This document shows positions 25,201 through 50,782 of a DNA stretch of 55,831 nucleotides, one piece after another (position 1 is the first letter of the stretch; each line of letters begins with the position of its first letter). Below the pieces are notes generated by a model that saw only the letters and a program-made list of their open reading frames with translations, searched no databases and was not told the origin of the DNA. The DNA is taken from assembly GCA_004524365.1 (NCBI GenBank), contig SDNL01000001.1:1-55831 (forward strand), read 5' to 3'. This DNA comes from Promethearchaeota archaeon. GTDB taxonomy: Archaea; Asgardarchaeota; Lokiarchaeia; Sigyniarchaeales; SOKP01. A program made the translations under genes and the position numbers.

Positions 25201-26097
25201 ATGGGCTTTAAAAAAATGAAAAAAGCATATAATGCATCTGCAAAAATAATGGAGAAACGGATGGAAAAGGAACGCCCAGAAGACTTTCAAATTTTAAAAA
25301 AAGTTTCTAAATCATCTATTGTGATAGTTAAAGGAACATACGATAAAGTGGAATTAGTTTTAGATCTTATTAATATTCCATATCTCTTAATAGATTCTAA
25401 TCAATTTAATCAAATTGAACTAAATCCTAACCAAATTCTAATAATTAACTGTCCCGGAAACGGTATGGAAGAAAGTCTTACTAAAATTAAGGATTTTGTT
25501 AAACAAGGAGGCTTCTTATTTACAACCGATTGGGCTTTATCAACAATTTTAGAACAAATCTTCCCTGATTTTTTAAAATATAATCAAAGACCAACGCAAG
25601 ATGATTGCGTCGCAGTTGAAATAGTTGATAAAAATAATAAATTTCTTGAGGGAATATTTAAAGCTGATGAAAAACCAATTTGGTGGTTAGAAAGTTCCTC
25701 CTATCCTATTCAAATATTAGATCCTAAAAAGGTTCAAATATTGGTCAAAAGCGAGGAAATGAAGCAAAAATATGGTCAAGATCCTATTGTTATTACTTTT
25801 AACTATGGAGATGGTGGGACCGTTTTACATATGACCAGCCACTACTATCTTCAGCGTTCTGAATTACGGACAAACCGTCATATGAAATCAGCTGCAGACT
25901 ATGCTATGGAGGAGATGGCTTTTTCAAAAGAAGAAGTAATGGAAATCGAAAAAGAACTTAATGGTGTGTCATTAGGAGAGGCTGAATCAGCATATTCTAC
26001 AACCCAGTTTCTCGGTAATGTTATTATTGAGCAACAGAAAAAAGTGAATAAACGATTGACTAAAAAGAAATCAGTTGAAAATAAAGAATCCAAATAA
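25201..26097 (+). CDS. Hypothetical protein (possibly a class-I glutamine-amidotransferase-like / ThuA-like fold)
   Basis: ILIINCPGNG...IKDFVKQGGFLFTTDWAL is reminiscent of GATase1-like folds, but I see no catalytic motif. The coding call rests on ORF length and position. Confidence 0.35.
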   Translation: MGFKKMKKAYNASAKIMEKRMEKERPEDFQILKKVSKSSIVIVKGTYDKVELVLDLINIPYLLIDSNQFNQIELNPNQILIINCPGNGMEESLTKIKDFVKQGGFLFTTDWALSTILEQIFPDFLKYNQRPTQDDCVAVEIVDKNNKFLEGIFKADEKPIWWLESSSYPIQILDPKKVQILVKSEEMKQKYGQDPIVITFNYGDGGTVLHMTSHYYLQRSELRTNRHMKSAADYAMEEMAFSKEEVMEIEKELNGVSLGEAESAYSTTQFLGNVIIEQQKKVNKRLTKKKSVENKESK

Positions 26098-26213
26098 TTC
26101 ACCTTTTTTTCTTTTCCTTAAGAAAATTGTATTAACGAAAAAGAAGATATAAAAAAACAAATATTATTATTATTTTTATAATCATACAATAAGTATTTTA
26201 TAATGATTTTAAT

Positions 26214-27773
26214 TTGCCCATCAAAGTCCTAATTGCTGAAGATTCTGCTTTTGTAAGAAAAAAAATTTCACAAATATTATCATCTAATAATTTAATAGAG
26301 GTTGTTGCAGCGGCAAAAAATGGAGAAGAAGCAGTCGAATTAACATTAAAGTATCTTCCCGATGTCCTAATCTTGGATCTATTAATGCCGAAGATGAATG
26401 GATTAGAAGCATTTAAGAGAATTATGAATGAATACACGGTTCCCACTATAATTTTATCTAGCATGGGACCTAGCAATTTAGATTCATCTATCCAAGCACT
26501 TATAATTGGTGCCTTTGATTATATAATGAAGCCGGGTACTCTTAAAGGGGAAAGTCTAACTCATTTCAAAGATATTTTAATTGATAAAGTAAAACTAGCA
26601 TCTAAATCCCACTTTAAAAGAGCAGATGATAAAAATGAGAAAAAATTTACCCAAATATCCCCCCGGCAAAAATTAGTCAATGAAATATTTGAATTTGGAC
26701 GATTTTTAAAAAAAATTGAGTCATCTGATAAGTCAAATTCAAAGACAAAACTCAAAAATATAGAAGATTTGAATTCAGTTCAAAAGAATGTCCCTCTTTC
26801 CGAATTTAAGCGTCATAAAAAGAATAAAAAAGAAAAAAAAAGAGTTCCAAAAAACATAGAAAAAGATTCTAAGGATGTAAAAAAACCTAAGAATAAAACA
26901 TCAATTAAGAATAAAAACGGGAAAAAGAAAGAATTATTAAAAAAAACCAAAACTTTTAAAGAAAGCGAAAACAATGCCAAAGAAAATAAGAATGGTAAAA
27001 GAAAATATGATAACTATTCTAAGTCTGTGAAGCAAACTTCAAAAGAAACTCCAATACTTAGTGGGAATTTAAAAAAATCTAATTTATACCCAGATCAAAT
27101 AAGTAAAGATATTAATTTAGAAAATAAAGATAAAAAAACATCTCTTACAGCGATTGATCTTCTCTCAAATAGAAATTTTCAAAAATCAAATATAAAAATA
27201 CATAGGAAATTAATAGTTATAGGTGCATCTGTGGGCGGCCCCCAAACAATTAAAACAATCCTAAAAAAACTCCCTAAGGATTATCCATTCCCAATTATCA
27301 TTGTGCAACATCTAAATTCAAAATTTATCAAACCATTTGCACAATCCATGGACGAATTATGTCCAATAAAGGTAAAGGTTGCTGAACACAATGAATTAAT
27401 AAAATCAAGTGTTGTATATATTGCCCCTGGAGAAAAGCATATTAAAGTATCCACAAAAAATCATTATCCAAGTATAAAAATATTTAATGATATTTCTATT
27501 AATTTTTGCAAACCTTCAATTGATATATTATTTATTTCGGCTTCACAAGTATATAAAAATCGGGTAGTAGGGATTTTACTAACAGGTATGGGTAAAGATG
27601 GGGTAAAAGGAATAAAATACATTTACAACAATAATGGATTTACGATATCTGAATCAGAAGAAACTGCTATTTTATATGGGATGCCAAAATTTGCAGTTGA
27701 AAAGGGTGTGGTAAACAAGAGCTTACCAATTGATAAAATTTCCGAATTACTAATTAGATATTCTAATACATAG
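26214..27773 (+). CDS. cheB: CheB methylesterase with receiver domain and an unusually long Lys-rich linker
   Basis: N-terminal REC domain (VLIAEDSAFVRK...LILDLLMPKMNG...). C-terminal esterase with GASVGGP (Ser), QHLN (His) and GMGKDG (Asp). About 200 aa of K/N/S-rich sequence lies between them. TTG start. Confidence 0.85.
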   Translation: MPIKVLIAEDSAFVRKKISQILSSNNLIEVVAAAKNGEEAVELTLKYLPDVLILDLLMPKMNGLEAFKRIMNEYTVPTIILSSMGPSNLDSSIQALIIGAFDYIMKPGTLKGESLTHFKDILIDKVKLASKSHFKRADDKNEKKFTQISPRQKLVNEIFEFGRFLKKIESSDKSNSKTKLKNIEDLNSVQKNVPLSEFKRHKKNKKEKKRVPKNIEKDSKDVKKPKNKTSIKNKNGKKKELLKKTKTFKESENNAKENKNGKRKYDNYSKSVKQTSKETPILSGNLKKSNLYPDQISKDINLENKDKKTSLTAIDLLSNRNFQKSNIKIHRKLIVIGASVGGPQTIKTILKKLPKDYPFPIIIVQHLNSKFIKPFAQSMDELCPIKVKVAEHNELIKSSVVYIAPGEKHIKVSTKNHYPSIKIFNDISINFCKPSIDILFISASQVYKNRVVGILLTGMGKDGVKGIKYIYNNNGFTISESEETAILYGMPKFAVEKGVVNKSLPIDKISELLIRYSNT

Positions 27774-27871
27774 CTATACAAAGTAAAGGAATTGAACGAT
27801 TTAAGATAAATCTCATATATATAACAAAAACATATGTTTTTAAGTATGTTCTATATTATTTTTGTAGAAAT

Positions 27872-29986
27872 ATGAGATACGAAATAATCGAAGGTGTTAA
27901 TATTATTCAACCCTTAGAAATGGATTCCGATATTTATGATAAAATCATTCTAAAATTGGAAACTGAGACTCATATCAAATTTAAGTATTATCAAAATAAT
28001 TATGTGATAAAAAGAATCAAATCAAGAATAAATTCTTTGAATTTATCTTCTGATGGAGCTTATTATGATTATTTAAAGAATCACCCAGATGAAATCGATC
28101 TTTTCTTAGATAATTTTACTATTAATTATTCTTACTTTTTTAGAAACTTTAACGTTTTTCAAGAAATAAAGAAATTGATAGAAAATGCGGGATTAACTCA
28201 ACAAGACACTATAAGAATATGGTCATGCCCTTGTGCTTCTGGTGAGGAGCCATATTCCTTGGCGATATTATTTGAAGAGTTAAAAAATGATAAGAAAAAT
28301 TTTCCTAATTATGAAATTATAGGTTCGGATATCAATCCAAACGCTATAAAAAAAGCAAGATTAGGAATTTACGGCGAACATGCTTTGAGTGAGATACCTG
28401 AAAAAATAAAGAAAAAGTACTTTGAAAGACTTTCAGAAAGTTCTTTAAAATATAAACTGATAAAAAAAATAAGAACTAAAGTAAGATTTATTAATGAAGA
28501 TATTACTTTAGGCCATCAAAAGTCTCAAAAATACGATATAATATTATGTAGAAACTTTATAATTTATATAGATAATATTTACCGAAAAGAACTCCTTAAG
28601 AATCTCAAAATGGTTTTAAAAGAGCAAGGTATATTAATACTAGGTAAAACCGAAAAAATTAGACAAGACAATGCTCTTGAAATCATTGATCCAATTAATC
28701 AATTTTATATCCATAATTCAGAAAATGTAAATGATAAATATCCATATAAATCTCTTTTATTTAAAAAAAATGAACAAAAAAGAATTTCAAAACCTCTAAA
28801 TCTAAAATTACAGAGTAGAGAATTCAAAACAAGAGAAAAATCAAATAAAAAACACCTACAAACAAGAAAAACTAAAAAACAAATTGAACAAAAGAGAGAG
28901 AAAAAGAATGATAAAAATGAAAATGATAATAAAAATTCAATAAAATTAATTAAACCTAATAAAGCCAAAGTCAAAAATGATAAAATTGTAGAATTAGAAC
29001 TAGAATCAGAACCCAATAAAACTACATATACATTAAATGAATTCAATGACAAATTTGCAAACCAAAAAATAAAAGGTTCTCAAGAAAAATTAGAAATCCA
29101 AGGTGAGTCTTCTGAACAAATCCAAGAGAATTTAAAAAAATTAAAAGAAAAGATTGATAAGGAAATCTTTTATCTTGACCAGCAGAGAGATGATTTAAAT
29201 AATAAAATATCAATTTTCCAAAAAAAACAAAAAGATTTTCAATTAGAAAAAGAACAATTTATTCGAAAAAAATTATTTTTTAAGCAACAAAAGAAACAAT
29301 ATGAAAAGGAATTAAAATGGTTTCAAAAACAAAAAAATCAGTTCGAGACTAATAGAGAACGATTTAAAGTTAAAAGAATTCAATTTTTAAAGGAGAAACG
29401 GAAATTTGAATCACGATTGCACAATAATAAAAAAAATAATGATAACATTAAAAAATTTGAAGAAAAAAAGAGATCTCTTAAGGAATATATATTACCTCTT
29501 GGGAGCCATATCTTACTTTCTCAAAATGATAATAGACTTGGAATAGGACTTTTAAGTTTATATGGGTTGGGAAGTAGCTATGTGTTAATTTTAGTTGATT
29601 CTGTTATCAAAGTATATAGCATGGCTCATATTTTATTTTCTAAACCAAAAAATAAAATACAAATGCCCGAGGAAGTATCAGCAATTGAAAAACCACATCA
29701 ATATGCTTCCCTATGTGTACCCTATTTGATAAAGAGAATGCTAGTGAAAGGGGCCTCAGAAAAAATGATCTCTGCTTATATTATTGGAGGTGCTCAGTTA
29801 TTCAATAAAAAATATGAGTCTATTATGGAAACTTATAATATTCTTAAAGAAAAATTGTCAGCATATAATATAGAACTTCTTAATTCAGATATAGGGGGAA
29901 AATCACGCCGTATGATAAAATATAACCTTAATGAAGAAAAATTATATTTAAGAACTGAGGATGAAAAATCCTTTAAACCCTTATAG
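27872..29986 (+). CDS. cheR: CheR methyltransferase fused, via a basic coiled-coil linker, to a CheD-like domain
   Basis: The N-terminal ~285 aa form a CheR domain (FFRN..., WSCPCASGEEPYSLAILF, ILCRNFIIY). The C-terminal ~170 aa align by eye to T. maritima CheD (GLGSSYVLIL..MAHILFS..IIGGAQLF..SDIGGKSRRMIKYNL..KLYLR). Confidence 0.8.
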   Translation: MRYEIIEGVNIIQPLEMDSDIYDKIILKLETETHIKFKYYQNNYVIKRIKSRINSLNLSSDGAYYDYLKNHPDEIDLFLDNFTINYSYFFRNFNVFQEIKKLIENAGLTQQDTIRIWSCPCASGEEPYSLAILFEELKNDKKNFPNYEIIGSDINPNAIKKARLGIYGEHALSEIPEKIKKKYFERLSESSLKYKLIKKIRTKVRFINEDITLGHQKSQKYDIILCRNFIIYIDNIYRKELLKNLKMVLKEQGILILGKTEKIRQDNALEIIDPINQFYIHNSENVNDKYPYKSLLFKKNEQKRISKPLNLKLQSREFKTREKSNKKHLQTRKTKKQIEQKREKKNDKNENDNKNSIKLIKPNKAKVKNDKIVELELESEPNKTTYTLNEFNDKFANQKIKGSQEKLEIQGESSEQIQENLKKLKEKIDKEIFYLDQQRDDLNNKISIFQKKQKDFQLEKEQFIRKKLFFKQQKKQYEKELKWFQKQKNQFETNRERFKVKRIQFLKEKRKFESRLHNNKKNNDNIKKFEEKKRSLKEYILPLGSHILLSQNDNRLGIGLLSLYGLGSSYVLILVDSVIKVYSMAHILFSKPKNKIQMPEEVSAIEKPHQYASLCVPYLIKRMLVKGASEKMISAYIIGGAQLFNKKYESIMETYNILKEKLSAYNIELLNSDIGGKSRRMIKYNLNEEKLYLRTEDEKSFKPL

Positions 29987-30096: not shown

Positions 30097-30900
30097 TTGA
30101 TTTTAAAAATGGAATTACTTCAACAAGCAGAAAAGGATTATAAAAACTGGGGAAATTTTCTTGATATTTCGGGATTTATGGATAAAATAACGACAAATCT
30201 TTCCGAAAAAGGCTTTGAGCGTGGAAACTCCCGTCTTGTTTATAGTGTATGTCCTGATGATGTCAATAGATTGCAAGACTTAAATACAATAGAAAAAGCA
30301 CTTACAAGTGAATATAACAACGAATTTCATTTGGGCGGCCTAGGTGCATACCCTATGGGCGGAGTATCTGGGATAATTGCTGCAAGTCATCACCCTCCTG
30401 ATAGAATTCTAAATGGTGATAGGCGCGGCGGTAATTTAATCTTTTTTATAAGCCCTCATTTCGGTCTTATCGAAAAAGAGAATTACCTCTATGGAAAAAT
30501 TATCAGACCAGGTCAACAAAAAATTACAAGTTCATGTGGTGCAATGATGGGCTTTTTAGATGCTTTAAAAACAGCGGGTAGTCCAAATAATTTTGATATT
30601 ACGCCCGACCCACATACTTTAGACCCTACTCGGATGGTATTACACTCTGAACTCATCAATAATTACTCGGATTGGCTCAATAATATTCTTCAAATGGATG
30701 ATCCTAATGATCAGGTGATTGATCTCTTTAAGTTAAATTACGATTTAGTAATTAATAAGATAGATGAAATGATAGAGGAATTTTTAACATTAGAAGGGGA
30801 TCACTTCGAAGGTGATATCGCAGTAATCGGAGGAGTTACTGTCAATACAGTATCTGGTGACAATTTTATTCTAAAAGAAATTAAATTTCCCAAAATCTAA
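30097..30900 (+). CDS. Hypothetical protein; tentative LCIB/LCIC-like (beta-carbonic-anhydrase-fold) family member
   Basis: Candidate metal ligands are spaced like a beta-CA-type site: VCPDDVNR (Cys/Asp), SPHFG (His) and SSCGAM (Cys). This rests on recollection of the family only. TTG start; an ATG lies at 30109. Confidence 0.3.
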   Translation: MILKMELLQQAEKDYKNWGNFLDISGFMDKITTNLSEKGFERGNSRLVYSVCPDDVNRLQDLNTIEKALTSEYNNEFHLGGLGAYPMGGVSGIIAASHHPPDRILNGDRRGGNLIFFISPHFGLIEKENYLYGKIIRPGQQKITSSCGAMMGFLDALKTAGSPNNFDITPDPHTLDPTRMVLHSELINNYSDWLNNILQMDDPNDQVIDLFKLNYDLVINKIDEMIEEFLTLEGDHFEGDIAVIGGVTVNTVSGDNFILKEIKFPKI

Positions 30901-31053: not shown

Positions 31054-32550
31054 ATGATAACTCAAGGCTTAGCGAAAATTATTGAATCAAGTTCTAATGA
31101 AATTAACTTATTTTATAAAAAAATTGATGAATATTTCAAAGGTAATATGTTAAAAAATATACAAAAATTACCTCTTAATGCTAATGATCCTAAAGAAGTA
31201 TTAAAATCTCTGGTTTCATTAATTTATGATATATTAAGAGATTTGAGTTTTTCAGAACAAGAAATAGAATGTCATTTTTCTTCACTTTGGAAAAGCAATA
31301 TAGAAGATCAGTTAGGAAATAAGAAGGAAATTATGGAGATATATGAGATTTTGTCGCCACTGCTTTATAAACTCTTCCTAGATAAAATCATTAATTACTT
31401 GGCGGATACAAAATCAAATTCTCATATGGCAAAATTAAAGTCTGAGAACTTCTTACCGATTGAATTTATAATAAAATTGAAAGAATTAAGAAAATTTTTT
31501 AATCAAAATTTGGAGAAAAAGGATAGATTACAAAAATATTTGCAAATACAAAATAAAATCTTACAAAAATTAATTAATAATCAAGAAAATATTGAGAAAT
31601 TTCAACAATTGAATGATCCAAGAGATAGAATCCAATTATCCTACATCATGTATCGTATCATAGAATTTTTCAATTTGGAAGGAATGTTTGATTTTTCTCC
31701 TATCCAGGATTACATTAAAGAACATCCGGAACAATGGTTGGATACAATCCCATTAGTTTCATTAAAAAATCCCGATATTTATTACTGTGGGATCTATCTC
31801 ATTAATAAACTTATTATTCCAATGGATATGAATGATGTAAAATACTTCCTTTTAAATATGTATGACGAATGCATTGACGAATTTGAAGCCCCACTCATAG
31901 AAGCTACAAATCAAGTTTATTTCTTTTTTAAGTCCTCTTGGATGGCAAGGCTAGAGCTTTCTAACAGACAAAATAAAGAACTACTCAAAGGAGATAAAGT
32001 TTATTATACCACATCCTATCTTAGAAATCTCGAAACTTCTCAATTAGTTCTAATTTTAAGAGTATATAATCATTTAGATTTATTTGATAAATTGGATCAA
32101 GATAAAATTAAGCCGATTACCAATGAAATAGAGAGAAGAGTCTCGGAAAAGGGGATTAAACAATTTCGGGATGGTTTTATCTCTGCAGAAGCTACATACC
32201 ATGTCTTATTTTATAAATATATGAGAAATAGTTTAGAAGGACTTCAAACCCAAAAGATTTTGGATAATATTATTTCTCGTATTTATAGAAATCTACAACT
32301 TATTGATTTTTCAGAAGATATTAATTATGACTTGCTCACTGAATTGTTTTATGCATGTCAGAGCCTTCAATTATTAAATTGTATCGAAAATGAGTCTATG
32401 GTGGAACTACTTGCTAAGCATCTTTTCCCAACAAGGGTCCTTCAAAAATTTATAGATTCTGATGAGACCCCTACTTTCAATAACTCAAAACTTTTTGAGC
32501 TCAAGATATCAAAAGATACAGGCGACCTTATTCATGAAATTAGGCACTGA
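31054..32550 (+). CDS. Hypothetical all-helical protein
   Basis: A long ORF (498 aa) with local codon usage. I recognise no catalytic motif. The C-terminal half has recurrent aromatic-rich helices (IYYCGIYLINKL, VYFFFKSS, ATYHVLFYKY, LFYACQSLQLL). Confidence 0.4.
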   Translation: MITQGLAKIIESSSNEINLFYKKIDEYFKGNMLKNIQKLPLNANDPKEVLKSLVSLIYDILRDLSFSEQEIECHFSSLWKSNIEDQLGNKKEIMEIYEILSPLLYKLFLDKIINYLADTKSNSHMAKLKSENFLPIEFIIKLKELRKFFNQNLEKKDRLQKYLQIQNKILQKLINNQENIEKFQQLNDPRDRIQLSYIMYRIIEFFNLEGMFDFSPIQDYIKEHPEQWLDTIPLVSLKNPDIYYCGIYLINKLIIPMDMNDVKYFLLNMYDECIDEFEAPLIEATNQVYFFFKSSWMARLELSNRQNKELLKGDKVYYTTSYLRNLETSQLVLILRVYNHLDLFDKLDQDKIKPITNEIERRVSEKGIKQFRDGFISAEATYHVLFYKYMRNSLEGLQTQKILDNIISRIYRNLQLIDFSEDINYDLLTELFYACQSLQLLNCIENESMVELLAKHLFPTRVLQKFIDSDETPTFNNSKLFELKISKDTGDLIHEIRH

Positions 32551-32585: not shown

Positions 32586-33236
32586 TTAAATTGATTTGAT
32601 CTTTTTGACTACTTCTCGAAGTTGTAAACTTCCCATCCCTAATCTTATCTCTTTAGAGAAAATTAAAATGAGAATAACTTCATAATCTTCTGCTAAATTA
32701 GTAAAGATTGAACATACCTTTTGTTTGTTCTCTAACTCAAGAAACATTTTCCTAACCTTTATCAATTTTTTTTGATTTCTTACTTCAAATTCTTTAATAG
32801 TATTTAATAATGTCTTATGTGGGAGGGAAGAGTAGAGAACCTTACCTGTAACCGTTAATAAAGCACTTCCAATAACCTCTTTATCATCAACACACTCTCT
32901 TAAAATATATAAAATATCTTCGAAGATATCCAAGGAGTTGAGATTTTGATCCATCGAATTTACCGATTCTTGAGTTTTTCCTTCAAAAAATTCCATTTTT
33001 GAGAATTCAAAATCAATTTTTTGATATCCTCGAGGTACATAATTTTTATCAATATAAACCTGGAAGCTGTGCCCGCAAATCAATCCTTTCGGAACTGAAA
33101 CAGTCGTTAACTGCTTACTTTCATTAATTATTTTAGAGGGGATCATAAGATGATCCTTTTTATCACAAACAGGACATTTTATCAATGTCTCTGTATATTG
33201 ATTACCCTCTGTGCTTGTATCTTTTTCACTTATCAT
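32586..33236 (-). CDS. Zinc-ribbon protein with C-terminal Roadblock/LC7-like domain (paralogue of 50171..50782)
   Basis: CPVC...CGHSF ribbon followed by RGYQKIDF. The C-terminal EVIGSALLTVTGKVLYSSLP...EVILILIFSKEIRLG fits a Roadblock-like pattern by eye. Confidence 0.5.
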   Translation of the reverse strand: MISEKDTSTEGNQYTETLIKCPVCDKKDHLMIPSKIINESKQLTTVSVPKGLICGHSFQVYIDKNYVPRGYQKIDFEFSKMEFFEGKTQESVNSMDQNLNSLDIFEDILYILRECVDDKEVIGSALLTVTGKVLYSSLPHKTLLNTIKEFEVRNQKKLIKVRKMFLELENKQKVCSIFTNLAEDYEVILILIFSKEIRLGMGSLQLREVVKKIKSI

Positions 33237-33494: not shown

Positions 33495-33809
33495 ATGGCA
33501 TTAGAGATAGGTGAACTAACAGGTCTCATCATGATTTCGGTGGCAGTCGTAATATTTATTATCTCAATGATTCTACAAAAATCATTGATTAAATATTTCC
33601 CTGGTATTATCTGTACCTGGTTTATCTTTCTATTTACAAATATAGAGGCACTTCCAGAGATTGCAACAGAATTGGCTGATTTATTTAACTTGTTTGAGCA
33701 TACATTCATTATGCTGTCCGCAATATGCTTCACTTTGGGAATTCTGTATGAATATTATTCCGGGTTTATTCGGAGTAAGCTTGATCATATGGCGAGAGGT
33801 GAAAAGTAA
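33495..33809 (+). CDS. Small three-helix membrane protein, or the detached N-terminal membrane part of the MCP
   Basis: Three hydrophobic helices. The stop lies 1 nt before the MCP ATG, and the MCP frame is also open across 33661..33810. Confidence 0.4.
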
Positions 33810-33810
33810 T

Positions 33811-35840: not shown

Positions 35841-35846
35841 AAATAT

Positions 35847-36431: not shown

Positions 36432-36446
36432 AATAAAAAAAAAGAG

Positions 36447-36845: not shown

Positions 36846-36867
36846 AAATTGAAGGTGAAAATTAGCA

Positions 36868-38976: not shown

Positions 38977-39011
38977 AAAAAATAAAGTTAAAATAAATAA
39001 GAGGTAAAAAA

Positions 39012-42134: not shown

Positions 42135-42135
42135 A

Positions 42136-42140
42136 GGAGG
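42136..42140 (+). promoter_or_regulatory. Shine-Dalgarno-like GGAGG, 6 nt upstream of the ATG at 42147
   Basis: The sequence aaaGGAGGaaaaaaATG lies in the 12-nt gap after the preceding stop. This is consistent with an internal ribosome-binding site in a polycistronic mRNA. Confidence 0.45.
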
Positions 42141-42146
42141 AAAAAA

Positions 42147-43004: not shown

Positions 43005-43033
43005 ACATATTTTAAACAAAGAATAAAAATGAG

Positions 43034-44977
43034 ATGAGAAATATGGTAGAGACATTATCTGACAGTAAAAATATAAATGTTGTAATAATTGGAATAAAAA
43101 GTGAGAAATATCTAATAAAAGTAGAAAAAGTAAAGGAAATATATGTTCCAAAGGATAATATAGTACCTATCCCATTAGCAGATAAAACAATTACAGGTGT
43201 AATCGATATTAGGGGAGAAGTCTATTCTATTTTATCTTTGAGAAAAAAAATATATGATGAGGAAAATCTCCATCATATTCATAAAGATAATCGAGTGCTA
43301 TTATTAGAAACTAATGGTGTAAATCTTTCAATACTTGTTGATGAAGTAATAGGCGTTAAAGAAATTCCAACTTCGGTTTTTAATCATGGTGCGCCAATTA
43401 TTGAAACCGATCTTGATATAAAATTCATTGAATCCGTTGCAATTATTGAAGAAAATACCTATATTCTATTAGATATCGATGCCTTCATTAAAAGTTTCAA
43501 TATTGATTTAAACTATAATAGGATTGAACCAATTTCGCCTTCGCGAAAAGAAACTAAGGGAGGAAGTTCCAATATAAGTATTGAAACAAAAAGACCGGAT
43601 ACATCTCCCATATCCTCTAGTGAAACTTACGAAATAGGAGGAAAATTATCTGAATTAAAAGATAAAATTAAATTAAATCCTGAACAAGAGGATATGCTTA
43701 AAGAGATTGGAAATATTGGCTCAGGAAATGCAGTGACTGCACTTTCTCGATTGATTAAGAAGAAAATTGATATCGATTTAACTAATGTTGGAATTGTTTC
43801 CTTTGACAATTTGACGGATCAATTTGGAGGTCCAATGGAAAAAGTATGCGGAATATTCTCCCAAATTAAGGGGGCGCCCCAATCATCGATCCTCCAAGCT
43901 TTTGAGCTGAAACCGCTAATGAAATTGATTTCATCTTTAATTGGTGATGATTCTCAAATAGATCCAGAAAATGTATCATCTAAAAAGGATCTTGATGACT
44001 TTGCGATCTCAACTATTACTGAAATGGGAAATATATTAGCGGGTCATTATGCATCTGCTTTAGCAGATTTGACGGGAACTAAAATGATGATCAATGTCCC
44101 TGAGTTTTCTGTTAGTGATATCGGTTCAATTGGGAAATTTTTAAGCCAAGAATTAAAAACAATCTATACATATATAGTGGTCATAAAAACATCAATTAAG
44201 GTTGTAGACTATGAATTAAATGGAGTATTTCTTTTCATTCCTGGCTTGGATACACTTTATAAATTCTTTGATCAGTTGGGAATCAATTATAAACCACAAG
44301 AATCATCAAGAAAATTCCATAAGAAATCTTTAAATTCGGATAATTTAGAACTTACAGAAATTCAAAGAGATGCTCTTCAAGAAATTGGTAATATTGGTTC
44401 TGGTAATGCCGCAAATGCTTTAGCTAAAATGGTGAATCAAAAAGTAACAATTGCTATTCCAAAGGTAGAAATGATGACTATTGATAAATTTTCTAAGAAG
44501 TTACAAACAAATGATAACCTATATACATCTTGGAGTAATGTAAAAGGGAAAACTCGCGCAACGGTGTTAACAATTTTCCAAATATCTGATATCATTGAAA
44601 TAACTGCTATTCTAACTGATGATAAGAAGAAAAAACAATTGGATCTCAGAAAAAAGTATGATAGCGTGGAAAAGTTCCCCGAAATGTATCAAAGTGCTAT
44701 GAGTGAGCTAGGAAATATTCTAGCTTCAAATTACGTATCCTCGCTCGGAGATCTCTTAGATATTCGATTAATGACGGACCCTCCTGATATGATCATAGAT
44801 ACGAAAGAACAGTTATTTACAAATTTAAGAGACCAAATTGGATTTCTAGAAAAATTATCTTTAGTAATAACTACTGCTGTTATAATCACTGATATCAAAA
44901 TAGAAGGAGCCTTTTTATTTGTTCCTGAAATAGAAACTCTACATGAACTTCTAAAAGCGCTTGAAAAGTTCTATTAA
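43034..44977 (+). CDS. cheC: CheW-like domain fused to two CheC-type phosphatase domains
   Basis: N-terminal CheW-like domain (YLIKVEKVKEIYVP...ITGVIDIRGEVYSILSLRKKI). Then two CheC units, each with LKEIGNIGSGNAVTAL / LQEIGNIGSGNAANAL and E-x2-N-x22-P-type sites (TEMGNILAGHYASALADLTGTKMMINVPEF; SELGNILASNYVSSLGDLLDIRLMTDPPDM). Confidence 0.75.
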   Translation: MRNMVETLSDSKNINVVIIGIKSEKYLIKVEKVKEIYVPKDNIVPIPLADKTITGVIDIRGEVYSILSLRKKIYDEENLHHIHKDNRVLLLETNGVNLSILVDEVIGVKEIPTSVFNHGAPIIETDLDIKFIESVAIIEENTYILLDIDAFIKSFNIDLNYNRIEPISPSRKETKGGSSNISIETKRPDTSPISSSETYEIGGKLSELKDKIKLNPEQEDMLKEIGNIGSGNAVTALSRLIKKKIDIDLTNVGIVSFDNLTDQFGGPMEKVCGIFSQIKGAPQSSILQAFELKPLMKLISSLIGDDSQIDPENVSSKKDLDDFAISTITEMGNILAGHYASALADLTGTKMMINVPEFSVSDIGSIGKFLSQELKTIYTYIVVIKTSIKVVDYELNGVFLFIPGLDTLYKFFDQLGINYKPQESSRKFHKKSLNSDNLELTEIQRDALQEIGNIGSGNAANALAKMVNQKVTIAIPKVEMMTIDKFSKKLQTNDNLYTSWSNVKGKTRATVLTIFQISDIIEITAILTDDKKKKQLDLRKKYDSVEKFPEMYQSAMSELGNILASNYVSSLGDLLDIRLMTDPPDMIIDTKEQLFTNLRDQIGFLEKLSLVITTAVIITDIKIEGAFLFVPEIETLHELLKALEKFY

Positions 44978-45088: not shown

Positions 45089-45613
45089 ATGCCAAATATT
45101 AAATATAGAGAAAAAATATTTCAAGTGGTTGGAGAAAATATAAAGCCAAATCCAAAAACCATTTTTAATCCTGAGGAAGTTTATCTATTTATTGATGAAA
45201 ACCTTAATGTGATATGGATCTGGGCTGGTGAGAAATCAAAACTATTTCATAGATACATTGCATCCTCATGGGCTGGTAAATTAAAGAGTAAAAAACAGTA
45301 TTTTAATTACAATTATGAACTTGTGAAACAAGGAAGGGAACCAAAAAAATTCAAAGTAATTATTGATGAAGTAGAAGAAGGAAGATCAGATCTGAATTAT
45401 CCCGGAGAATCTAGGACTCTTGAAATTAGTGTCAAATCCAAATCTAAAAATGATTTACATTCAAATCGATATTCACAAAAAATACCAAATAAAAAGGTTG
45501 CTAAAATTACAGCCATTCTCTCTGAAGTTCAAGAAATGCAAAGTCATATTAGATATTCTCTAGAACATATAGGAAAGCGCATTAGAAAGATAGATGAAAT
45601 TTTGAATAGTTAA
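45089..45613 (+). CDS. Single gelsolin-domain protein with C-terminal helical tail
   Basis: FQVVGENIKP......EVYLFIDENLNVIWIWAGEKSKLFHRYIASSWAGKLKS....ELVKQGREPKKF follows the gelsolin-repeat pattern (l..v.g....v...l.s.d.yiLd....iy.W.G..as..e...a...a..l......i..v.eg.Ep..F). Confidence 0.55.
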   Translation: MPNIKYREKIFQVVGENIKPNPKTIFNPEEVYLFIDENLNVIWIWAGEKSKLFHRYIASSWAGKLKSKKQYFNYNYELVKQGREPKKFKVIIDEVEEGRSDLNYPGESRTLEISVKSKSKNDLHSNRYSQKIPNKKVAKITAILSEVQEMQSHIRYSLEHIGKRIRKIDEILNS

Positions 45614-45672: not shown

Positions 45673-46626
45673 ATGATAAATTCATCACTTTTAGATACTT
45701 TACTTGAAAATTTTCTAAATCAAGTTAATGATTTAACTGCCGTGTTGGTTGTCGATGCAGATGGACTTATAATCGCTCAAGAATCAACCAAAGACTTTGA
45801 TGAACAAATAATCGCTGCCATTATGGCTATTCTGGATCAAACAATAAATAAGATTAAGAAATATGCCGAAACTTCCTTTGGGAGTGGGACTCTAGATACT
45901 AATGAATTCCGCTTGTTTTATTTAGAATTAGGAGGAGATTTCCCTGTTATATTCGTAATAGTAACCGATTCGTACACAAATATCGATAAATACATCCCTT
46001 ATTCATACCTAGTCGCCGAAAAAGTATCTCTCTTAATAAATAATACAAATGATATTAATGTTAGACTTCCAGAACTCCTTGAAAATGGAGAATTAAGATT
46101 TAATTCTTGCAAGAGTTCTAACAAACGTACCAAGAATTATATTTTGGTAATTGGTCCTCAAAAAGTAGGGAAAACGGCATTAGTAAATAAATATACAAAT
46201 AATGCATTTATTGAACATTATAAACCAACTATAGGATTATCAATAGTTAAAAAAGAACTTCAAATCTCTAAGAAAATTCAATCTATTCTTTATCTATTTG
46301 ATATGGGTGGATTTAAGGCATTTGGTAAAGTAAGGAAGCATTTTTATGAATCGATTGATATTAAAACAATAGTACTTGTTTTTGATTATTCCAAAGAATC
46401 TACTTTAGATAAAATTAATGATTGGTTTTATGAAGTCAATTTATTTAATAAACAAGAAAGCATTCAATATGTTTTAGTTGGAAATAAAATTGATAAAATT
46501 GATTATAGAGAGGAAATTAGAAAAAAAGCTGAGAATATAGCAAATGAATATAATTGTAGGTTATATGAGACATCCGCTCTTACAGGACAGGGTATTGATG
46601 AACTATTTATGAATATAGCCTTTTAA
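45673..46626 (+). CDS. Roadblock/LC7 domain fused to a Ras/Rab-like small GTPase
   Basis: The N-terminal VNDLTAVLVVDADGLIIAQES...IAAIMAILDQT...FPVIFVIVTD is a classic Roadblock/MglB-like pattern. The C-terminal G domain has G1 GPQKVGKT (46153..46176), G2 PTIG, G3 DMGGF (46300..46314), G4 GNKID and G5 ETSA. Confidence 0.75.
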   Translation: MINSSLLDTLLENFLNQVNDLTAVLVVDADGLIIAQESTKDFDEQIIAAIMAILDQTINKIKKYAETSFGSGTLDTNEFRLFYLELGGDFPVIFVIVTDSYTNIDKYIPYSYLVAEKVSLLINNTNDINVRLPELLENGELRFNSCKSSNKRTKNYILVIGPQKVGKTALVNKYTNNAFIEHYKPTIGLSIVKKELQISKKIQSILYLFDMGGFKAFGKVRKHFYESIDIKTIVLVFDYSKESTLDKINDWFYEVNLFNKQESIQYVLVGNKIDKIDYREEIRKKAENIANEYNCRLYETSALTGQGIDELFMNIAF

Positions 46627-46674
46627 TTATAATATTTTCTCTAATTTTAAGTTAAAATGCAATGAAAATTTGAA

Positions 46675-48756
46675 TTGATGCCAATAAAGATGAATAAAAA
46701 AATTAACGCCGTGAAAGCCAAGTTTATTAATCCAATAAAAGAACTTAGTATTCCAACTTTCATTATTGACTCAAATCATAACGTAATTGAATGGAATAAA
46801 GCCATTAAGAACTTGACAGGAGTAAGGCGAAAGGAGATACTTGGCACTTCTAATGCTTGGAAGGCCTTTTATTCAGAAAAGCGCCCTACTTTAGCAGATC
46901 TCTTACTGGATGGAAAGATAGAAGAGATAGAAACATATTTTCAAAACTTTTCAAAGGCAAAGCATTGTCTTAGAGGTTATACTGCTGAGAAATGGCTTGA
47001 AATAAATTATGAGAGATTATATCTTATCATGACTGCTACCGCAATTCTGGATAAAAAAGGGGAGATCATTCAAATTATACAAACAATTGAAGATAGGACA
47101 GAATCAAAACATATAAAGGATAGAAAAGAGTTTTTAAATTCAATATTTCGGCATGATGCAAATAATATGATAAATGTATGCCACGGGTTTCTCAAATTAT
47201 TGGAAAAAACTGAATTAACAGAAGTGCAGAAGGACTATCTTCAAGAAGCTATTAATGCTTCGCGTGGAGTAATCAGCATCATTGAAAAAGTAAGTAAACT
47301 TCAAAAAGTTGGAAGGGAAGAGACTCAAGACCTGTCATTAGGGGATTTAATTCAAGAAATTGTAAATAAAAATCAATTCCAAGCAAAGGAAAAAGGTATT
47401 ACGATTGAAGTATGTCTTCCAGAATTTAGCTCAAATGTCCAAGCAGGGGAATTGCTTGAAGATGTGTTTATTAATATAATTGGAAATTCATTGCAACATA
47501 GTCAATGCGACAAAATTAAAATCTCGGGAAGAGAAAGTAAGGATGCAATTATTTGTTGTATTGAAGATAATGGAAAGGGAATAAAAGAAGAAGATAAAGA
47601 AATGATATTTAATCAAGGATTTAAGAGAGGAAAAAGTGCTGGATCAGGATTGGGGTTATTTCTTGTTAAAAAGATTACTAATAATTATGGGGCGAAAGTT
47701 TATGTAAAGGATTCTCAACTTGGTGGTGTGAAATTCGAAGTTCAATTAAAGAAGAGTAAAGGAAGACCAGAAAAAAGAAGAAATTCATTATCTCAAATTG
47801 AAAATGATTTTCATCTCACAGAAGATTCTTTACTTAATAATGAACATCATCTCCAAAATTTAATTGTTGTGGTCGATGATAATTTACAATTTTTAACCTA
47901 TATGAAAGTTTTACTAGAAAATTATGATTACAAAGTGGAAACTTTTAGAAGTGCTGTAAATGCCTTATCATATATTGAAAATCAGGACTATCACTCTATT
48001 CCTGATCTTATTATTTCTGATATACGCATGCCAGAACTCTCAGGATATGAATTCTTTAAGAATCTTTCTTCTAATCCAAAATTAAATCGCATTCCTTTTA
48101 TATTCCTTTCTGGGTTGAGCTCGAAGGATGATATTAGATTAGGAAAATATCTTGGAGCTGATGATTATATTACCAAACCGGTTTATGAAGAAGATATCCT
48201 TGCTTCGATTAAAGGAAAACTCCGTAGAAAAAAAGCAGGGAGCGTGTTTGAAACGGAAATTGATAAATATTTAAATTTAGAACAAAAGCGAGACAATAAA
48301 CTTGAAAATATGAAGTTTGATGAGGAAATCGTTCTTTTTTTGATATTTTGGGATGATAAAAAAGGTCCAAAATTAATTGAACAATATCCTGAGAAAAGCA
48401 GAATTTCACTTTCTGTTGATAAACTTGGTACTCAAATATTTCAAGCAATCGTTCCAATATATGGGCAATCAAAAAATATTGTAAATGCGGAAGATGTATT
48501 ATTTAGAATCGAAAATATCAATAAACATGCGTATCTTTACTTTGATGCATTTTATGATGAGTCAAAGCGATCTAAACAGACAGAATTTATGCTTTCAGTA
48601 ATCGCTCCAACGATAAGTTATTTTGAATCATTAAAATTAAAAAAAATATTATCTAATCTCTCAAATATATTAAAAGAAGATAACGACACGAAAAAAATAA
48701 ATTTCAGGCAGTATTGGAAAGACATTTTAGGCATTTTAAGTAAATTTGAAAATTAA
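46675..48756 (+). CDS. Hybrid sensor kinase: PAS - HisKA - HATPase - REC - extra C-terminal alpha/beta domain (longin/Roadblock-like, tentative)
   Basis: H-box FRHDANNMINV, N-box NIIGNSLQHS, G-boxes EDNGKGI / GSGLGLFLVKKI. REC domain (VVVDDN...LIISDIRMPELSGY...ITKPV). The final ~150 aa (IVLFLIFWDDKKGPKLIEQYPE...) have no kinase-related motif. TTG listed; ATG at 46678. Confidence 0.8.
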   Translation: MMPIKMNKKINAVKAKFINPIKELSIPTFIIDSNHNVIEWNKAIKNLTGVRRKEILGTSNAWKAFYSEKRPTLADLLLDGKIEEIETYFQNFSKAKHCLRGYTAEKWLEINYERLYLIMTATAILDKKGEIIQIIQTIEDRTESKHIKDRKEFLNSIFRHDANNMINVCHGFLKLLEKTELTEVQKDYLQEAINASRGVISIIEKVSKLQKVGREETQDLSLGDLIQEIVNKNQFQAKEKGITIEVCLPEFSSNVQAGELLEDVFINIIGNSLQHSQCDKIKISGRESKDAIICCIEDNGKGIKEEDKEMIFNQGFKRGKSAGSGLGLFLVKKITNNYGAKVYVKDSQLGGVKFEVQLKKSKGRPEKRRNSLSQIENDFHLTEDSLLNNEHHLQNLIVVVDDNLQFLTYMKVLLENYDYKVETFRSAVNALSYIENQDYHSIPDLIISDIRMPELSGYEFFKNLSSNPKLNRIPFIFLSGLSSKDDIRLGKYLGADDYITKPVYEEDILASIKGKLRRKKAGSVFETEIDKYLNLEQKRDNKLENMKFDEEIVLFLIFWDDKKGPKLIEQYPEKSRISLSVDKLGTQIFQAIVPIYGQSKNIVNAEDVLFRIENINKHAYLYFDAFYDESKRSKQTEFMLSVIAPTISYFESLKLKKILSNLSNILKEDNDTKKINFRQYWKDILGILSKFEN

Positions 48757-48908
48757 AATCTAATTAATCAATAATTTCAACAATAGGGTTAAAAATTAAA
48801 TATCAGCTTTAAGGAGTTTATTTTTTTAGTTAAAATTAAATAGAAAAACTATATTAAATAAATACACACTATTTATAAAAATAAAAATGTATTAAAAACA
48901 TAAATTAA

Positions 48909-49844
48909 TTGATTCAAACTATGAAAAGTCTAAAGCTAATAATTGCAGGTTTAGATTATGCTGGGAAGACAAGTTCCATTATTGCTCTTAGAGAAAAATA
49001 TAATTTTTACGAAAAAGTGGAAAATTTGAAGCCCACGGTCAAGATTGAATATAGTAGTTTCAACTTTCTCAATCAATGGGAAGTTAATATTTGGGATATG
49101 GGTGGACAAGAGAAGTATAGACAAATTTATTTAGATAAACCAGAATATTTCGCAGATACAAATTATTTCTATTATTATATTGATATTCAAGATGAAAAAA
49201 AGATCTCCGAATCAATTAATTATTTTGAAGAATTATTAACAATTTTGAAAGATTTTAATTATTCTAATAAAATAATAATCTGTTTTCACAAATATGACCC
49301 AAAATTAAGAAGAAATAAAGATATTCTTGAAAGAATTACAAGTGTAAAGAAAAAACTTAAACAAAATGAACATTTTGAGTTTAAATTCTTTAGAACTTCA
49401 ATTTTTGATATTTCAACTCTTTCTAAAGCAATCTCATATTCATTAAATAGCTTAATTGATTTTAGTGTTTTAAAGCTAATTTTAAAGGGATTAATTCGAA
49501 AATTTAATGGAAATTATGCAATTTTATATACTGATTCAGGTGTGATACTTGTTGATTTTTATAAAGAAATTTTAGATTCGATTGAATATGAAGAGAAAGT
49601 ACGTCAATCAATTAACCGTGACCTTGTACTCATTCAAAAATTGAAGGATGATAATGTTGAATTCAATGAACGAGTAGATTATGATGAAGAGATTAAATAT
49701 TTAAAAAAATATGAGATTGGGGACAATATTTTCTTTCTAAAGATGAACGCTCCAAAAATGAGAGAGGAAAAAATACAATTATTGAAAAATAACTTTCAAA
49801 ATTTCGAAAACGACCTCCAAGAGATATTTTCAAATAATTCGTAA
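48909..49844 (+). CDS. Rag/Gtr-like (Arf-related) small GTPase with C-terminal Roadblock-like domain
   Basis: G1 GLDYAGKTS, G2 PTV, G3 WDMGGQEKYR (49092..49109). G4 is HKYD (49287..49298), the HKxD variant characteristic of Rag/Gtr GTPases rather than NKxD. The C-terminal ~125 aa (GNYAILYTDSGVILVDFYKE...) look Roadblock-like. The 311 aa length is close to eukaryotic RagA. TTG listed; ATG at 48921. Confidence 0.65.
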   Translation: MIQTMKSLKLIIAGLDYAGKTSSIIALREKYNFYEKVENLKPTVKIEYSSFNFLNQWEVNIWDMGGQEKYRQIYLDKPEYFADTNYFYYYIDIQDEKKISESINYFEELLTILKDFNYSNKIIICFHKYDPKLRRNKDILERITSVKKKLKQNEHFEFKFFRTSIFDISTLSKAISYSLNSLIDFSVLKLILKGLIRKFNGNYAILYTDSGVILVDFYKEILDSIEYEEKVRQSINRDLVLIQKLKDDNVEFNERVDYDEEIKYLKKYEIGDNIFFLKMNAPKMREEKIQLLKNNFQNFENDLQEIFSNNS

Positions 49845-49853
49845 GGAGTTTGC

Positions 49854-49910
49854 TTTTTTTATTTTAATTATTTTTATCTCATTTTTATCTCATTTTTATC
49901 TCATTTTTAT
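49854..49910 (+). terminator. Oligo-T tracts downstream of the Rag-like gene (probable archaeal intrinsic terminator region)
   Basis: A T7 run at 49854..49860 lies 10 nt after the stop codon, followed by four T5 runs within an 11-bp tandem repeat. Archaeal RNA polymerase terminates at oligo-dT stretches. Confidence 0.4.
49870..49910. repeat. 11-bp tandem repeat, ATTTTTATCTC x about 3.7
   Basis: Read directly: atttttatctc atttttatctc atttttatctc atttttat. Confidence 0.85.
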
Positions 49911-50156
49911 TGCTCTGCTATTTCTTCTTCCTCATAGTCTGGAGATTACATTGGTAGAACAAATATCATATCTTTTAACCATTTATTAGTAATCATAAAT
50001 GATTTTTTGTTTTGCTCAGATTTAAAAACAAAGACTATTATTAATTATTCTGAATTGACCAGTTAAAACTGTTGATATTTATTACAAATAATACACCAAA
50101 AAATTTTTAATATTAATTATGTGTCAATTCACAACTATTATAAGGGTTATTAATAA

Positions 50157-50162
50157 AGGAGG
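50157..50162 (+). promoter_or_regulatory. Shine-Dalgarno-like AGGAGG, 8 nt upstream of the ATG at 50171
   Basis: The sequence aataaAGGAGGtattcttaATG. Confidence 0.45.
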
Positions 50163-50170
50163 TATTCTTA

Positions 50171-50782
50171 ATGTTGGTAAATATTTTATGTCCGTATTGT
50201 AAGAAAATGTTTCGAAAGGAAATTACAAATACAAAAAAATCTGGGACTCTTTATTCCACACTAATAAAGGCCCAAGATGGACATGAAGGATGTGGTGCAT
50301 TTTTAGCATTTATCGATAATAACGGAATGCATCGGGGCTCTCAAAAAATTGATCATATTGAAGAAGCACATTCCGAAAATGAAACTTATATTAATCAAGC
50401 ACTTAAAAATATAAATGAATTGGATGAAAAAATTAGATTCTATCATCTTAAAATCCCTAAAACAAAATTCAAACGTTCCTTTGAGTATAAAGTGGCCAGC
50501 GTAAAGGATAGGGCATTTATGAGTTCACGCACTTATAAAGGCTTATTTAATTTTGTTAAAGATTGTAGGAATGATAATATGTTTGGAATGCTTTCTTTAG
50601 ATTCGGATGCTGAACTTGATGGCTCATTAGTCTATGGAAAATATATGGGGTTACTCTATGTTCTCTATTGGAATAATCAAAAAAAAATAAGAAATAGTTC
50701 TTGGGATGAAATCAAAGGCTATACCAATCTTACTGTTGAAAAACTTATTGAGTTGTACGAATTGATCGATTTATTCTTTTAA
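50171..50782 (+). CDS. Zinc-ribbon protein, paralogue of 32586..33236
   Basis: CPYCKKMF...GCGAFLAFIDNNGMHRGSQKIDH aligns with CPVCDKKD...CGHSFQVYIDKNYVPRGYQKIDF. The C-terminal alpha/beta region is possibly Roadblock-like. Confidence 0.5.
   Translation: MLVNILCPYCKKMFRKEITNTKKSGTLYSTLIKAQDGHEGCGAFLAFIDNNGMHRGSQKIDHIEEAHSENETYINQALKNINELDEKIRFYHLKIPKTKFKRSFEYKVASVKDRAFMSSRTYKGLFNFVKDCRNDNMFGMLSLDSDAELDGSLVYGKYMGLLYVLYWNNQKKIRNSSWDEIKGYTNLTVEKLIELYELIDLFF

Follow-up and report, generated by a model that had tools for sequence, protein, structure and literature searches.

The window analysed here, the whole stretch of 55,831 nucleotides (nt) at positions 1 to 55,831 of contig SDNL01000001.1 from the Promethearchaeota archaeon assembly GCA_004524365.1 (Lokiarchaeia), carries a chemosensory (che) cluster in which Che genes are interleaved with genes for five other proteins: a tandem longin/Roadblock-fold protein of 272 amino acids (aa), a 1040-aa DUF11/coiled-coil protein, a 285-aa protein of a small Asgard-only family, a 174-aa gelsolin-domain protein and a Roadblock-Ras GTPase. 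We found that the association of these five proteins with the Che core exceeds chance, since their synteny is kept in 13 assemblies. We propose that the cluster encodes a lineage-specific Che system of Lokiarchaeia-type Asgard archaea, in which the five non-Che proteins are integral and the output would be a GTPase/longin/gelsolin module acting on actin. Based on gene content and synteny, we judge this proposal to be evenly poised between right and wrong. The target of such a system may be the cell skeleton and not a rotary motor.

The window genome is a draft of 1.89 Mb in 166 contigs, 62% complete, with a GC content of about 30%, and the window is its contig C128. Gene identities were determined by open reading frame (ORF) calling and Pfam searches, and unmatched proteins were taken to profile searches, AlphaFold2 (AF2) or ESM-Atlas models, and Foldseek searches. 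All coordinates below are on the plus strand unless marked otherwise. An initial annotation, made from the letters of the window, had named cheB, cheR-cheD, an MCP gene, cheW, cheY, cheA and cheW-cheC-cheC, and Pfam confirmed them all. The MCP has a hydrophobic N-terminal stretch (33661-34932; MCPsignal, 2e-29) and is followed by CheW (35847-36431; CheW, 3e-25), CheY (36447-36845; Response_reg, 1e-26) and a CheA with domains P1-P5 (36868-38976; Hpt, P2, H-kinase_dim, HATPase_c and CheW as P5), so that MCP, CheW, CheY and five-domain CheA all score above the Pfam cut-offs. The adaptation and termination set is complete, comprising CheB (26214-27773; Response_reg, 1e-21; CheB_methylest, 5e-56), a fusion of the methyltransferase CheR with CheD (27872-29986; CheR, 3e-44; CheR_N; CheD, 1e-13) and a CheW-CheC-CheC fusion (43034-44977; CheW, 2e-19; CheC, 3e-41 in four stretches; CheX), which would join an array-coupling domain to predicted CheY-P phosphatase domains. 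In the alignment of CheY orthologues, the acidic pocket, the phospho-acceptor Asp, the Ser and the Lys are canonical, and D15, D16, D61, S89 and K111 are invariant. The receiver and methylesterase of CheB are separated by a linker of about 200 aa rich in Lys, Asn and Ser; an additional folded domain at this position was considered and rejected, as the insert is low-complexity, Lys-rich sequence.

All genes between 26214 and 50782 lie on the plus strand with the sole exception of 32586-33236, which bears out the nearly one-stranded layout described before. The tight packing between 35022 and 48756 was also borne out, with intergenic gaps of 6 to 111 nt rather than the 6 to 112 nt first given. 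From the longin gene to CheW-CheC-CheC the gaps are only 6-35 nt, and no oligo-T run occurs between the seven genes of 35022-44977; by these gaps, the longin, DUF11 and 285-aa genes are predicted to lie inside one operon. A T7 run stands upstream of the gelsolin gene, and the gelsolin, Roadblock-Ras and kinase genes follow each other at 59 and 48 nt with no oligo-T between them. The GGAGG-type ribosome-binding sites of the initial annotation were found again as Shine-Dalgarno-like AAGGAGG upstream of two starts (42147 and 50171), and the weaker GAAGGTGA and AAGAGGT stand upstream of 36868 and 39012. The gene order proposed earlier held for the genes it listed and omitted three genes between cheR-cheD and the MCP gene.

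To describe conservation, CheA loci were compared in eight relatives first and in five more later. We found the order longin-CheW-CheY-CheA-DUF11-285aa-CheW-CheC-CheC-gelsolin in 13 assemblies, G014 being without the longin gene: the window genome (G000), its nine cluster-bearing relatives (G001-G004, G011, G012, G014, G022 and G031; 72-97% complete) and L059-L061. Over this set the identity of CheA to that of the window falls from 76% to 48%. The tandem-longin gene is present in the cluster of 12 assemblies, the gelsolin gene stands 3' of CheW-CheC-CheC in all 13, and Roadblock-Ras orthologues (43-75% identity, full length) adjoin gelsolin, CheC or CheB in 11. A search of 41 related genomes detected the CheA orthologue (E<1e-190), the 285-aa protein (E<1e-100) and the gelsolin-domain protein (E<1e-70) in exactly the same 10, which represent six genera in two families and are patchily distributed within the window's own genus. 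The presence and absence of four accessory genes matches that of the Che core; tandem-longin paralogues are also found in Che-less genomes, and DUF11 was not part of the genome-wide search. As the linkage is kept at about 50% CheA identity and through rearranged gene order, and as presence and absence follow CheA among the relatives, the longin, gelsolin and Roadblock-Ras genes are conserved members of the set and not chance neighbours. The initial annotation had proposed a supercluster of Che, GTPase and cytoskeletal genes; its longin, gelsolin and Roadblock-Ras part is thus upheld by synteny, and its hybrid kinase and Rag-like GTPase proved limited to one genus.

These data also bear on an explanation in which the Che system acts on an unrelated process (for instance surface structures or pili, gene expression or metabolism), with the gelsolin, longin and GTPase genes as co-regulated passengers. 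Bacterial Che-like systems with non-motility outputs are well known, and an LCIB-type gene and a 498-aa gene are likewise conserved neighbours of the cluster, so that non-signalling genes can travel with it. However, one would not expect passengers to stay tightly linked while gene order is rearranged and sequences diverge by about 50%, or to disappear along with CheA, and the gaps of 6-35 nt put the longin, DUF11 and 285-aa genes inside the predicted operon. We therefore regard a passenger role as improbable.

The five accessory proteins

Pfam searches admitting E-values up to 5 returned nothing significant for the 272-, 285-, 174-, 498-, 298-, 216- and 203-aa proteins of the window. For the 272-aa protein (35022-35840), the first gene of the tightly packed predicted operon, the AF2 model (predicted local distance difference test, pLDDT, 85.5; predicted template-modelling score, pTM, 0.79) has the strand/helix order bbabbba (b, strand; a, helix) twice. 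Foldseek gave 54 matches to PDB structures at E<=1e-3, and among the 50 listed almost all were longin or Roadblock proteins, including Mon1/Ccz1, Fuzzy/Inturned, TRAPP Bet5/Trs23, adaptor-protein (AP) sigma/mu, LAMTOR, MglB (6izw and 6hjm), an Asgard Roadblock protein (9jq8) and a Loki longin (8yqg). On the model, the protein is composed of two longin/Roadblock domains whose strand order is of the longin type, and its earlier description as tandem Roadblock-like was right. Paralogues with 36-38% identity were also seen outside Che operons, at L034:10001-11881 (CP070831.1), L035 and L036, where each is followed by genes for a 118-aa unknown and a 160-aa Zn_Ribbon_1 protein. Upstream of such paralogues lie actin and LRR genes in one complete genome, and MCP and REC/HisKA genes in two others.

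The Roadblock-Ras fusion (45673-46626) is identified by Pfam as Ras (3e-31) and Robl_LC7 (8e-6), in agreement with the initial call of a Roadblock-Ras-like GTPase, whose linkage is kept in the 11 assemblies mentioned above. Its G1-G5 motifs are conserved in 10 orthologues as GxxxxGK(T/S), PTIG, DxxG, NKxD and ES(A/T/S), and the N-terminal Roadblock domain is conserved at least as well as the GTPase domain. In all 10, the residue after DxxG, which is the catalytic Gln in Ras, is F, L, K, I, V or M; the missing Gln implies a predicted hydrolysis that is slow or dependent on a GTPase-activating protein (GAP). The gene lies directly 3' of the gelsolin gene in G000, G001, G002 and G004, and is immediately followed by CheB in G003, G012, G014 and G031 (43-51% identity). 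In L059-L061 the gene for the full-length protein (49-55% identity) has CheC before it and a long-form CheB after it, with a gap of 6 nt to CheC in two of these loci. A long-form CheB orthologue thus stands directly 3' of Roadblock-Ras in G003, G012, G014, G031 and L059-L061. As further observations on these loci, L059 and L060 also carry a short canonical CheB, and L061 a shorter second copy. For G012 and G014, Roadblock-Ras lies on the contig of the cluster, about 14 kb beyond gelsolin. The Che-less genomes G005-G008 gave paralogues of 32-35% identity and no orthologue. Roadblock-Ras thus belongs to the conserved gene set, though not in every genome that carries the cluster.

The 174-aa protein (45089-45613) contains a single gelsolin domain, a linker and a conserved C-terminal segment, which we take to be a helix. 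A profile of nine orthologues was searched against PDB sequences, and the best match was the Asgard ProGel 7c2f_B (E=6e-7), in line with the gelsolin domain claimed earlier. CapG (2e-5) and 2DGel (6e-5 to 1e-3; Loki 2DGel 7whg, 1e-4) came next, followed by villin, gelsolin and adseverin, so that the gelsolin family accounts for 13 of the 16 matches. By its profile the protein is a divergent gelsolin domain, and its orthologues are confined to the 10 Che-bearing genomes of the 41 searched.

The 1040-aa protein (39012-42134) has a conserved N-terminal domain, a coiled coil of variable length and C-terminal DUF11/CARDB-like beta-sandwich repeats (Pfam DUF11, 5e-16 in three stretches, and DUF7507). 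No signal peptide was seen in it by eye, and a search of PDB sequences gave only generic coiled-coil matches such as SMC and myosin. Downstream of it is the gene for the 285-aa protein (42147-43004), which has a confident AF2 model (pLDDT 93, pTM 0.90) and belongs to a small family, for which 60 representatives turned up in 1.84 billion proteins and 155 clusters at 90% identity, every listed cluster name being 'hypothetical'. Of 201 genomes sampled evenly across the phylum, the protein was detected in six, which all belong to one family. Four structure searches returned mostly PD-(D/E)XK or Mrr-type nucleases over residues ~90-204, with modest scores (Foldseek PDB, E 0.02-0.06; AFDB, E 4e-4 to 7e-3; VIA, Z 5-6.9; Atlas, template-modelling score (TM) ~0.4). 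The catalytic D...(D/E)xK motif was not found in the protein: a conserved ExK is absent, with INCSY or ITCVD in the third core strand. The residues conserved in the family (A92, K94, R96, E203, D215, N233, F234, G251, W276 and G278) appear, as we place it on the model, to lie away from where a nuclease site would be. The core resembles a PD-(D/E)XK fold that lacks the catalytic motif, and we read the protein as a probable non-catalytic binding module.

The DUF11 gene always stands between CheA (or CheD) and the 285-aa gene, also where CheA is only 27-31% identical to that of the window. The pair is kept in such distant clusters in G026, G039, L042, L043 and a Logan contig, which retain CheA, CheD, DUF11-like, 285-aa-like and CheW-CheC-CheC genes wherever the contig reaches far enough. 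Since the pair is kept there, the DUF11 and 285-aa proteins are the oldest companions of this class of CheA. They are its deepest-conserved partners, a point missed by the initial annotation.

Candidate output of the pathway

We searched for swimming-motor genes with Pfam models, leaving out ArlI, ArlJ and ArlH, whose families are shared with pilus proteins. CheF (PF04283), archaellin (PF01917) and ArlD/E (PF04659) were not found in the window genome at its 62% completeness, and the nine cluster-bearing relatives (72-97% complete) likewise gave no CheF or archaellin; none of the 41 genomes searched gave an archaellin match. As positive controls, CheF was found in three named control genomes, and archaellin was also found in named controls. 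The initial annotation had recognised no archaellum gene or CheF, and the genome-wide search agrees. The genes upstream of 25201 encode GatE, GatD and a PAS kinase, and motility genes there were ruled out.

In its boldest form, which we hold to be rather less likely than not, the proposal has a prokaryotic array and His-Asp phosphorelay steer eukaryote-like actin through a dedicated GTPase/longin switch and a gelsolin effector, with the DUF11 and 285-aa proteins in place of CheF. For the evenly poised proposal given at the outset, the steps would be as follows. Receptor arrays would set the activity of CheA and how much CheY~P is present. The DUF11 and 285-aa proteins would read CheY~P, or else the array, as an adaptor and functional stand-in for CheF; this role is proposed because the pair accompanies CheA in every version of the cluster with sufficient contig. 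The signal would then set the nucleotide state or location of Roadblock-Ras, for which the tandem-longin protein may serve as a platform of the guanine nucleotide exchange factor (GEF) or GAP type. The gelsolin-domain protein would locally sever, cap or nucleate lokiactin filaments, so that the cell would extend or withdraw protrusions (chemotropism or crawling) instead of swimming. In one genus, the PAS-kinase-REC-longin protein and the Rag-like GTPase described below may feed a second input into the same switch.

The main rival to an actin output places the accessory proteins on the input side, where they would build, position or anchor the array through an actin or cell-pole tether, resembling ParC/ParP or other array-positioning systems, while CheY would have some other output. 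The position of the DUF11 and 285-aa genes between those of the array components CheA and CheW-CheC in every cluster version speaks for it, as does the variable length of the coiled coil, which would suit a spacer or scaffold; moreover, small GTPase/Roadblock pairs are known to define the cell poles of Myxococcus. However, such an alternative output was not found, the searches above having given neither CheF nor archaellin in cluster-bearing genomes, and the Roadblock-Ras gene pairs with CheB and CheC, genes of adaptation and termination, and not with scaffold genes. We consider this arrangement unlikely, if less so than a passenger role.

Several findings weigh against an actin-directed output through the five proteins. 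The cluster of G014 has no tandem-longin gene, and tandem-longin paralogues exist outside Che clusters, also in Che-less genomes. A Roadblock-Ras orthologue was not found in G011 and G022, both of which carry the cluster, so the GTPase is not obligatory. Pfam's own Gelsolin model (PF00626) does not reach the 174-aa protein. The distant cluster versions contain no recognisable gelsolin, which would make the actin link, if real, a later addition; the 193-aa and 139-aa proteins downstream of the L042 cluster were considered as gelsolin-like and rejected. Motor genes were judged absent from draft genomes, with two or three Pfam models. Finally, G039, which has a distant cluster, gave a CheF-domain match of 71 bits, the sole one above the cut-off in the 41 relatives. 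This match (L057, G039:C334:4317-5573) is at the end of a separate 5.6-kb contig with a GC content of 37%, compared with 31-33% for the Che contigs; it may come from another system or from contamination, and may or may not belong to the same system.

If the proposed output on actin holds, the cluster would show how prokaryotic sensing was wired to eukaryote-type cytoskeletal control. In its boldest form the proposal would imply gradient-guided growth of protrusions or crawling, with a possible evolutionary bridge to eukaryotic chemotaxis, and a novel type of adaptor between CheY and its effector, made of the DUF11 and 285-aa proteins, would take the place of CheF. Confirmation of the link to actin and the GTPase would make this chemosensory system, whose output would not be a motor, highly interesting. 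The question of the Asgard Che output becomes testable, as the tandem-longin, DUF11/coiled-coil, 285-aa, gelsolin and Roadblock-Ras proteins form a defined candidate module that can be expressed and assayed. The cluster is also a rare genomic pairing, in which synteny links one particular GTPase to a longin protein and an actin regulator.

Downstream and neighbouring genes

Three genes follow Roadblock-Ras in the window. The first encodes a PAS-HisKA-HATPase-REC hybrid kinase (46675-48756), identified by Pfam in agreement with the initial annotation and extended by about 170 further residues beyond REC. On the ESM-Atlas model (whole-protein pLDDT 0.73), this C-terminal region (~540-693) is longin-like and aligns at a TM of 0.61-0.71 with SMCR8/folliculin, NPR2, C9orf72 and Avl9, and with longins fused to Asgard Arf/Ras GTPases. 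No relation to the 272-aa family emerged when profiles were compared (E=0.27), and the likeness to a folliculin/SMCR8-type longin is a lead, not proof. The second encodes a Rag/Gtr-like GTPase (48909-49844), the single such gene in the window, whose earlier assignment is supported by Pfam Gtr1_RagA (PF04670; 1e-23, 84 bits against a cut-off of 22) and by the motifs GLDYAGKT, DMGGQ and HKYD, the last an HKxD variant of G4. A second T7 run upstream separates it from the kinase gene. The third (50171-50782) encodes a 203-aa zinc-ribbon-like protein, which is also 3' of the Rag-like gene in G001 and G004.

Both the kinase and the Rag-like gene had been counted as part of the Che supercluster, and this was not sustained: they adjoin the cluster only in G000, G001 and G004, three species of one genus, and their association with it may be no more than chance. 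We lean slightly towards a reading, for the genes at 46675-50782 alone, in which kinase, Rag-like GTPase and zinc ribbon are an independent two-component/GTPase module that landed in one genus and acts outside the Che pathway. In G002 only Roadblock-Ras follows gelsolin, and the Rag-like orthologues of G002 (67% identity) and G012 (63%) were found elsewhere, where 1.5 kb on each side contained no che genes. Ras-family genes are dense in the window genome, about one per 51 kb, so adjacency alone is weak evidence. The oligo-T run between the kinase and Rag-like genes points the same way, as do standalone REC-longin genes beside a small GTPase gene. On the other side, the kinase gene starts 48 nt after Roadblock-Ras with no oligo-T run between them, the distant L042 cluster is again followed by a gene for a longin-like 139-aa protein and two Rag-like GTPase genes, and another distant cluster has a Rag/Arf-like GTPase gene about 7 kb away.

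The standalone proteins are about 300 aa long, are 42-50% identical to kinase residues 390-693, and were seen at L044 (G005:C6), L046 (G002:C33) and L047 (G006:C25). Their genes adjoin that of a small GTPase of ~185 aa, and in G002 and G006 also a histidine kinase gene; the 3.9 kb covered in G005 contain the small GTPase gene alone. G005 and G006 are Che-less, and the recurrence points to a general module that would place a GTPase under two-component control. At L042 (L042:12374-16600, GCA_054386715.1), where CheA is 30% identical, the cluster is followed by genes for CheC and for 139-aa and 193-aa unknowns, then by two adjacent Gtr1_RagA-like GTPase genes (31% identical to that of the window) and a gene for a 309-aa unknown. 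By hhalign, the 139-aa protein shows a weak likeness to longins (E=3e-4, probability 40%), and the two GTPases may form a Rag-like heterodimer pair.

The 203-aa protein is a paralogue of a 216-aa protein encoded on the minus strand (32586-33236), which has an N-terminal CxxC...C.H zinc-ribbon-like module (BLASTP E=3e-8 between the two). The earlier view that two zinc-ribbon paralogues bracket the cluster was correct as to paralogy; the bracket spans only the genes from MCP to the Rag-like GTPase and not the whole region. Orthologues of the 216-aa gene lie divergently upstream of the longin gene in G002, G022, L059 and L061, with one more in G011. A Roadblock domain in the 216-aa protein was rejected, as the MglB match of its C-terminal half reached only E ~0.4 and hhalign was negative.

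Between CheR-CheD and the 216-aa gene are two further genes, for an LCIB-type beta-carbonic-anhydrase-like protein (30097-30900; LCIB_C_CA, 4e-32) and for a 498-aa protein with no family assigned and no Pfam match (31054-32550). Orthologues of the former (60-67% identity) adjoin the Che cluster or the Roadblock-Ras/CheB pair in G002, G004, G012, G014 and G031, and those of the latter (40-56% identity) adjoin the cluster in the same five genomes. In G014 (C7, L063) and G031 (C315, L065) the LCIB-type gene is directly beside the Roadblock-Ras/CheB pair. A link of this gene, which travels with che genes, to the sensing of CO2 or bicarbonate is possible.

The region had been drawn from 25201. The ORF at 25201-26097 encodes neither a Che protein nor a zinc-ribbon protein and has no counterpart in the clusters of relatives; it is unrelated to the cluster. 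It is one of four ORFs of 298-471 aa without a Pfam match, the others being 17738-18823, 18929-19987 (minus strand) and 54417-55829. The flanks of the window carry housekeeping genes, namely those for GatD/E, dihydroorotate dehydrogenase, fibrillarin/Nop5, uL2 and TFIIB. In five relatives, though not in the window, genes of an A/V-type ATPase (subunits c, C, F, E, A, B and D where the stretch suffices) lie beside the Che cluster: L020:928-7613 (G012), L028 (G014), L025 (G031), L017 (G004) and L019 (G002). By their sizes (350, 106, 106, 240, 607, 460 and 216 aa) these genes had resembled an archaellum operon near the relatives' clusters, and Pfam identified them as the ATPase operon. Overall, nearly every gene call of the initial annotation was confirmed, with Pfam supporting its GTPase, the AF2 model its tandem Roadblock and the profile search its gelsolin assignments.

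Comparison with known systems

A cultured Asgard archaeon has been seen to possess chemoreceptor arrays, and many Asgard genomes contain che genes; the paper on these findings names no output (PMC9834061). In strain MK-D1, GTPase genes are generally not in operons with Roadblock or longin genes, and partners are hard to predict (PMC10933270). The nearest relatives of the parts are the Asgard gelsolins, the Asgard Roadblock/longin proteins and Rag-like GTPases (PMC7444086, PMC10933270). In open-access papers and bioRxiv we found no description of an Asgard Che system combined with gelsolin, actin or a GTPase, which agrees with the earlier statement that such an arrangement was not known to have been characterised; a receiver-longin fusion was likewise not found described there.

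Archaeal Che systems coupled to the archaellum through CheF and ArlCDE share the same core, including the CheC and CheD typical of archaeal and Bacillus-type systems. The present cluster differs from them in that no CheF or archaellin was found, in its CheW-CheC-CheC and CheR-CheD fusions, and in five further conserved genes.

The nearest working analogue is the Frz pathway of Myxococcus xanthus, which acts on MglA (Ras-like), MglB (Roadblock) and RomR. In both cases a Che-type pathway without flagellar output comes together with a Ras-superfamily GTPase and Roadblock-fold regulators, here as judged from the genes alone, and receiver-domain proteins link, or here would link, the phosphorelay to the GTPase switch. 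The 272-aa model also matches the MglB structures 6izw and 6hjm. Myxococcus frz and mglBA are separate loci, whereas the GTPase described here bears its own Roadblock domain and lies among the che genes. Also unlike the MglA system as compared, the Gln after DxxG of Ras is replaced by a hydrophobic residue or Lys, and the set includes gelsolin-domain, DUF11/coiled-coil and PD-(D/E)XK-like proteins in an archaeal host with eukaryote-like actin. The comparison is one of functional analogy, and orthology to MglA, MglB or RomR is not claimed.

The 174-aa protein is homologous to the Asgard gelsolins ProGel, 1DGelX and 2DGel, with ProGel 7c2f_B as its best PDB match, and these proteins act on actin in vitro (PMC7444086). 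Its single domain with a C-terminal extension loosely recalls 1DGelX (Akil et al. 2020, PMC7444086). However, it is much shorter, falls below the Pfam threshold and forms an orthologous group of its own that occurs only with this Che cluster.

In fold, the 272-aa protein matches the eukaryotic longin/Roadblock platforms Mon1-Ccz1, the TRAPP core, Ragulator-Rag, FLCN-FNIP and C9orf72-SMCR8, and the C-terminal domain of the kinase, on its model, may do so as well. As in Ragulator-Rag, there is a Rag-like GTPase with the Rag-type HKxD motif; in contrast to these platforms, the tandem protein has two longin domains per chain and not three. If the proposed output on actin is correct, the system would follow the same logic as eukaryotic gradient sensing, in which a receptor acts through a small GTPase on a regulator of actin filaments, with a His-Asp phosphorelay and methylation-based adaptation upstream in place of a G-protein-coupled receptor and a heterotrimeric G protein.

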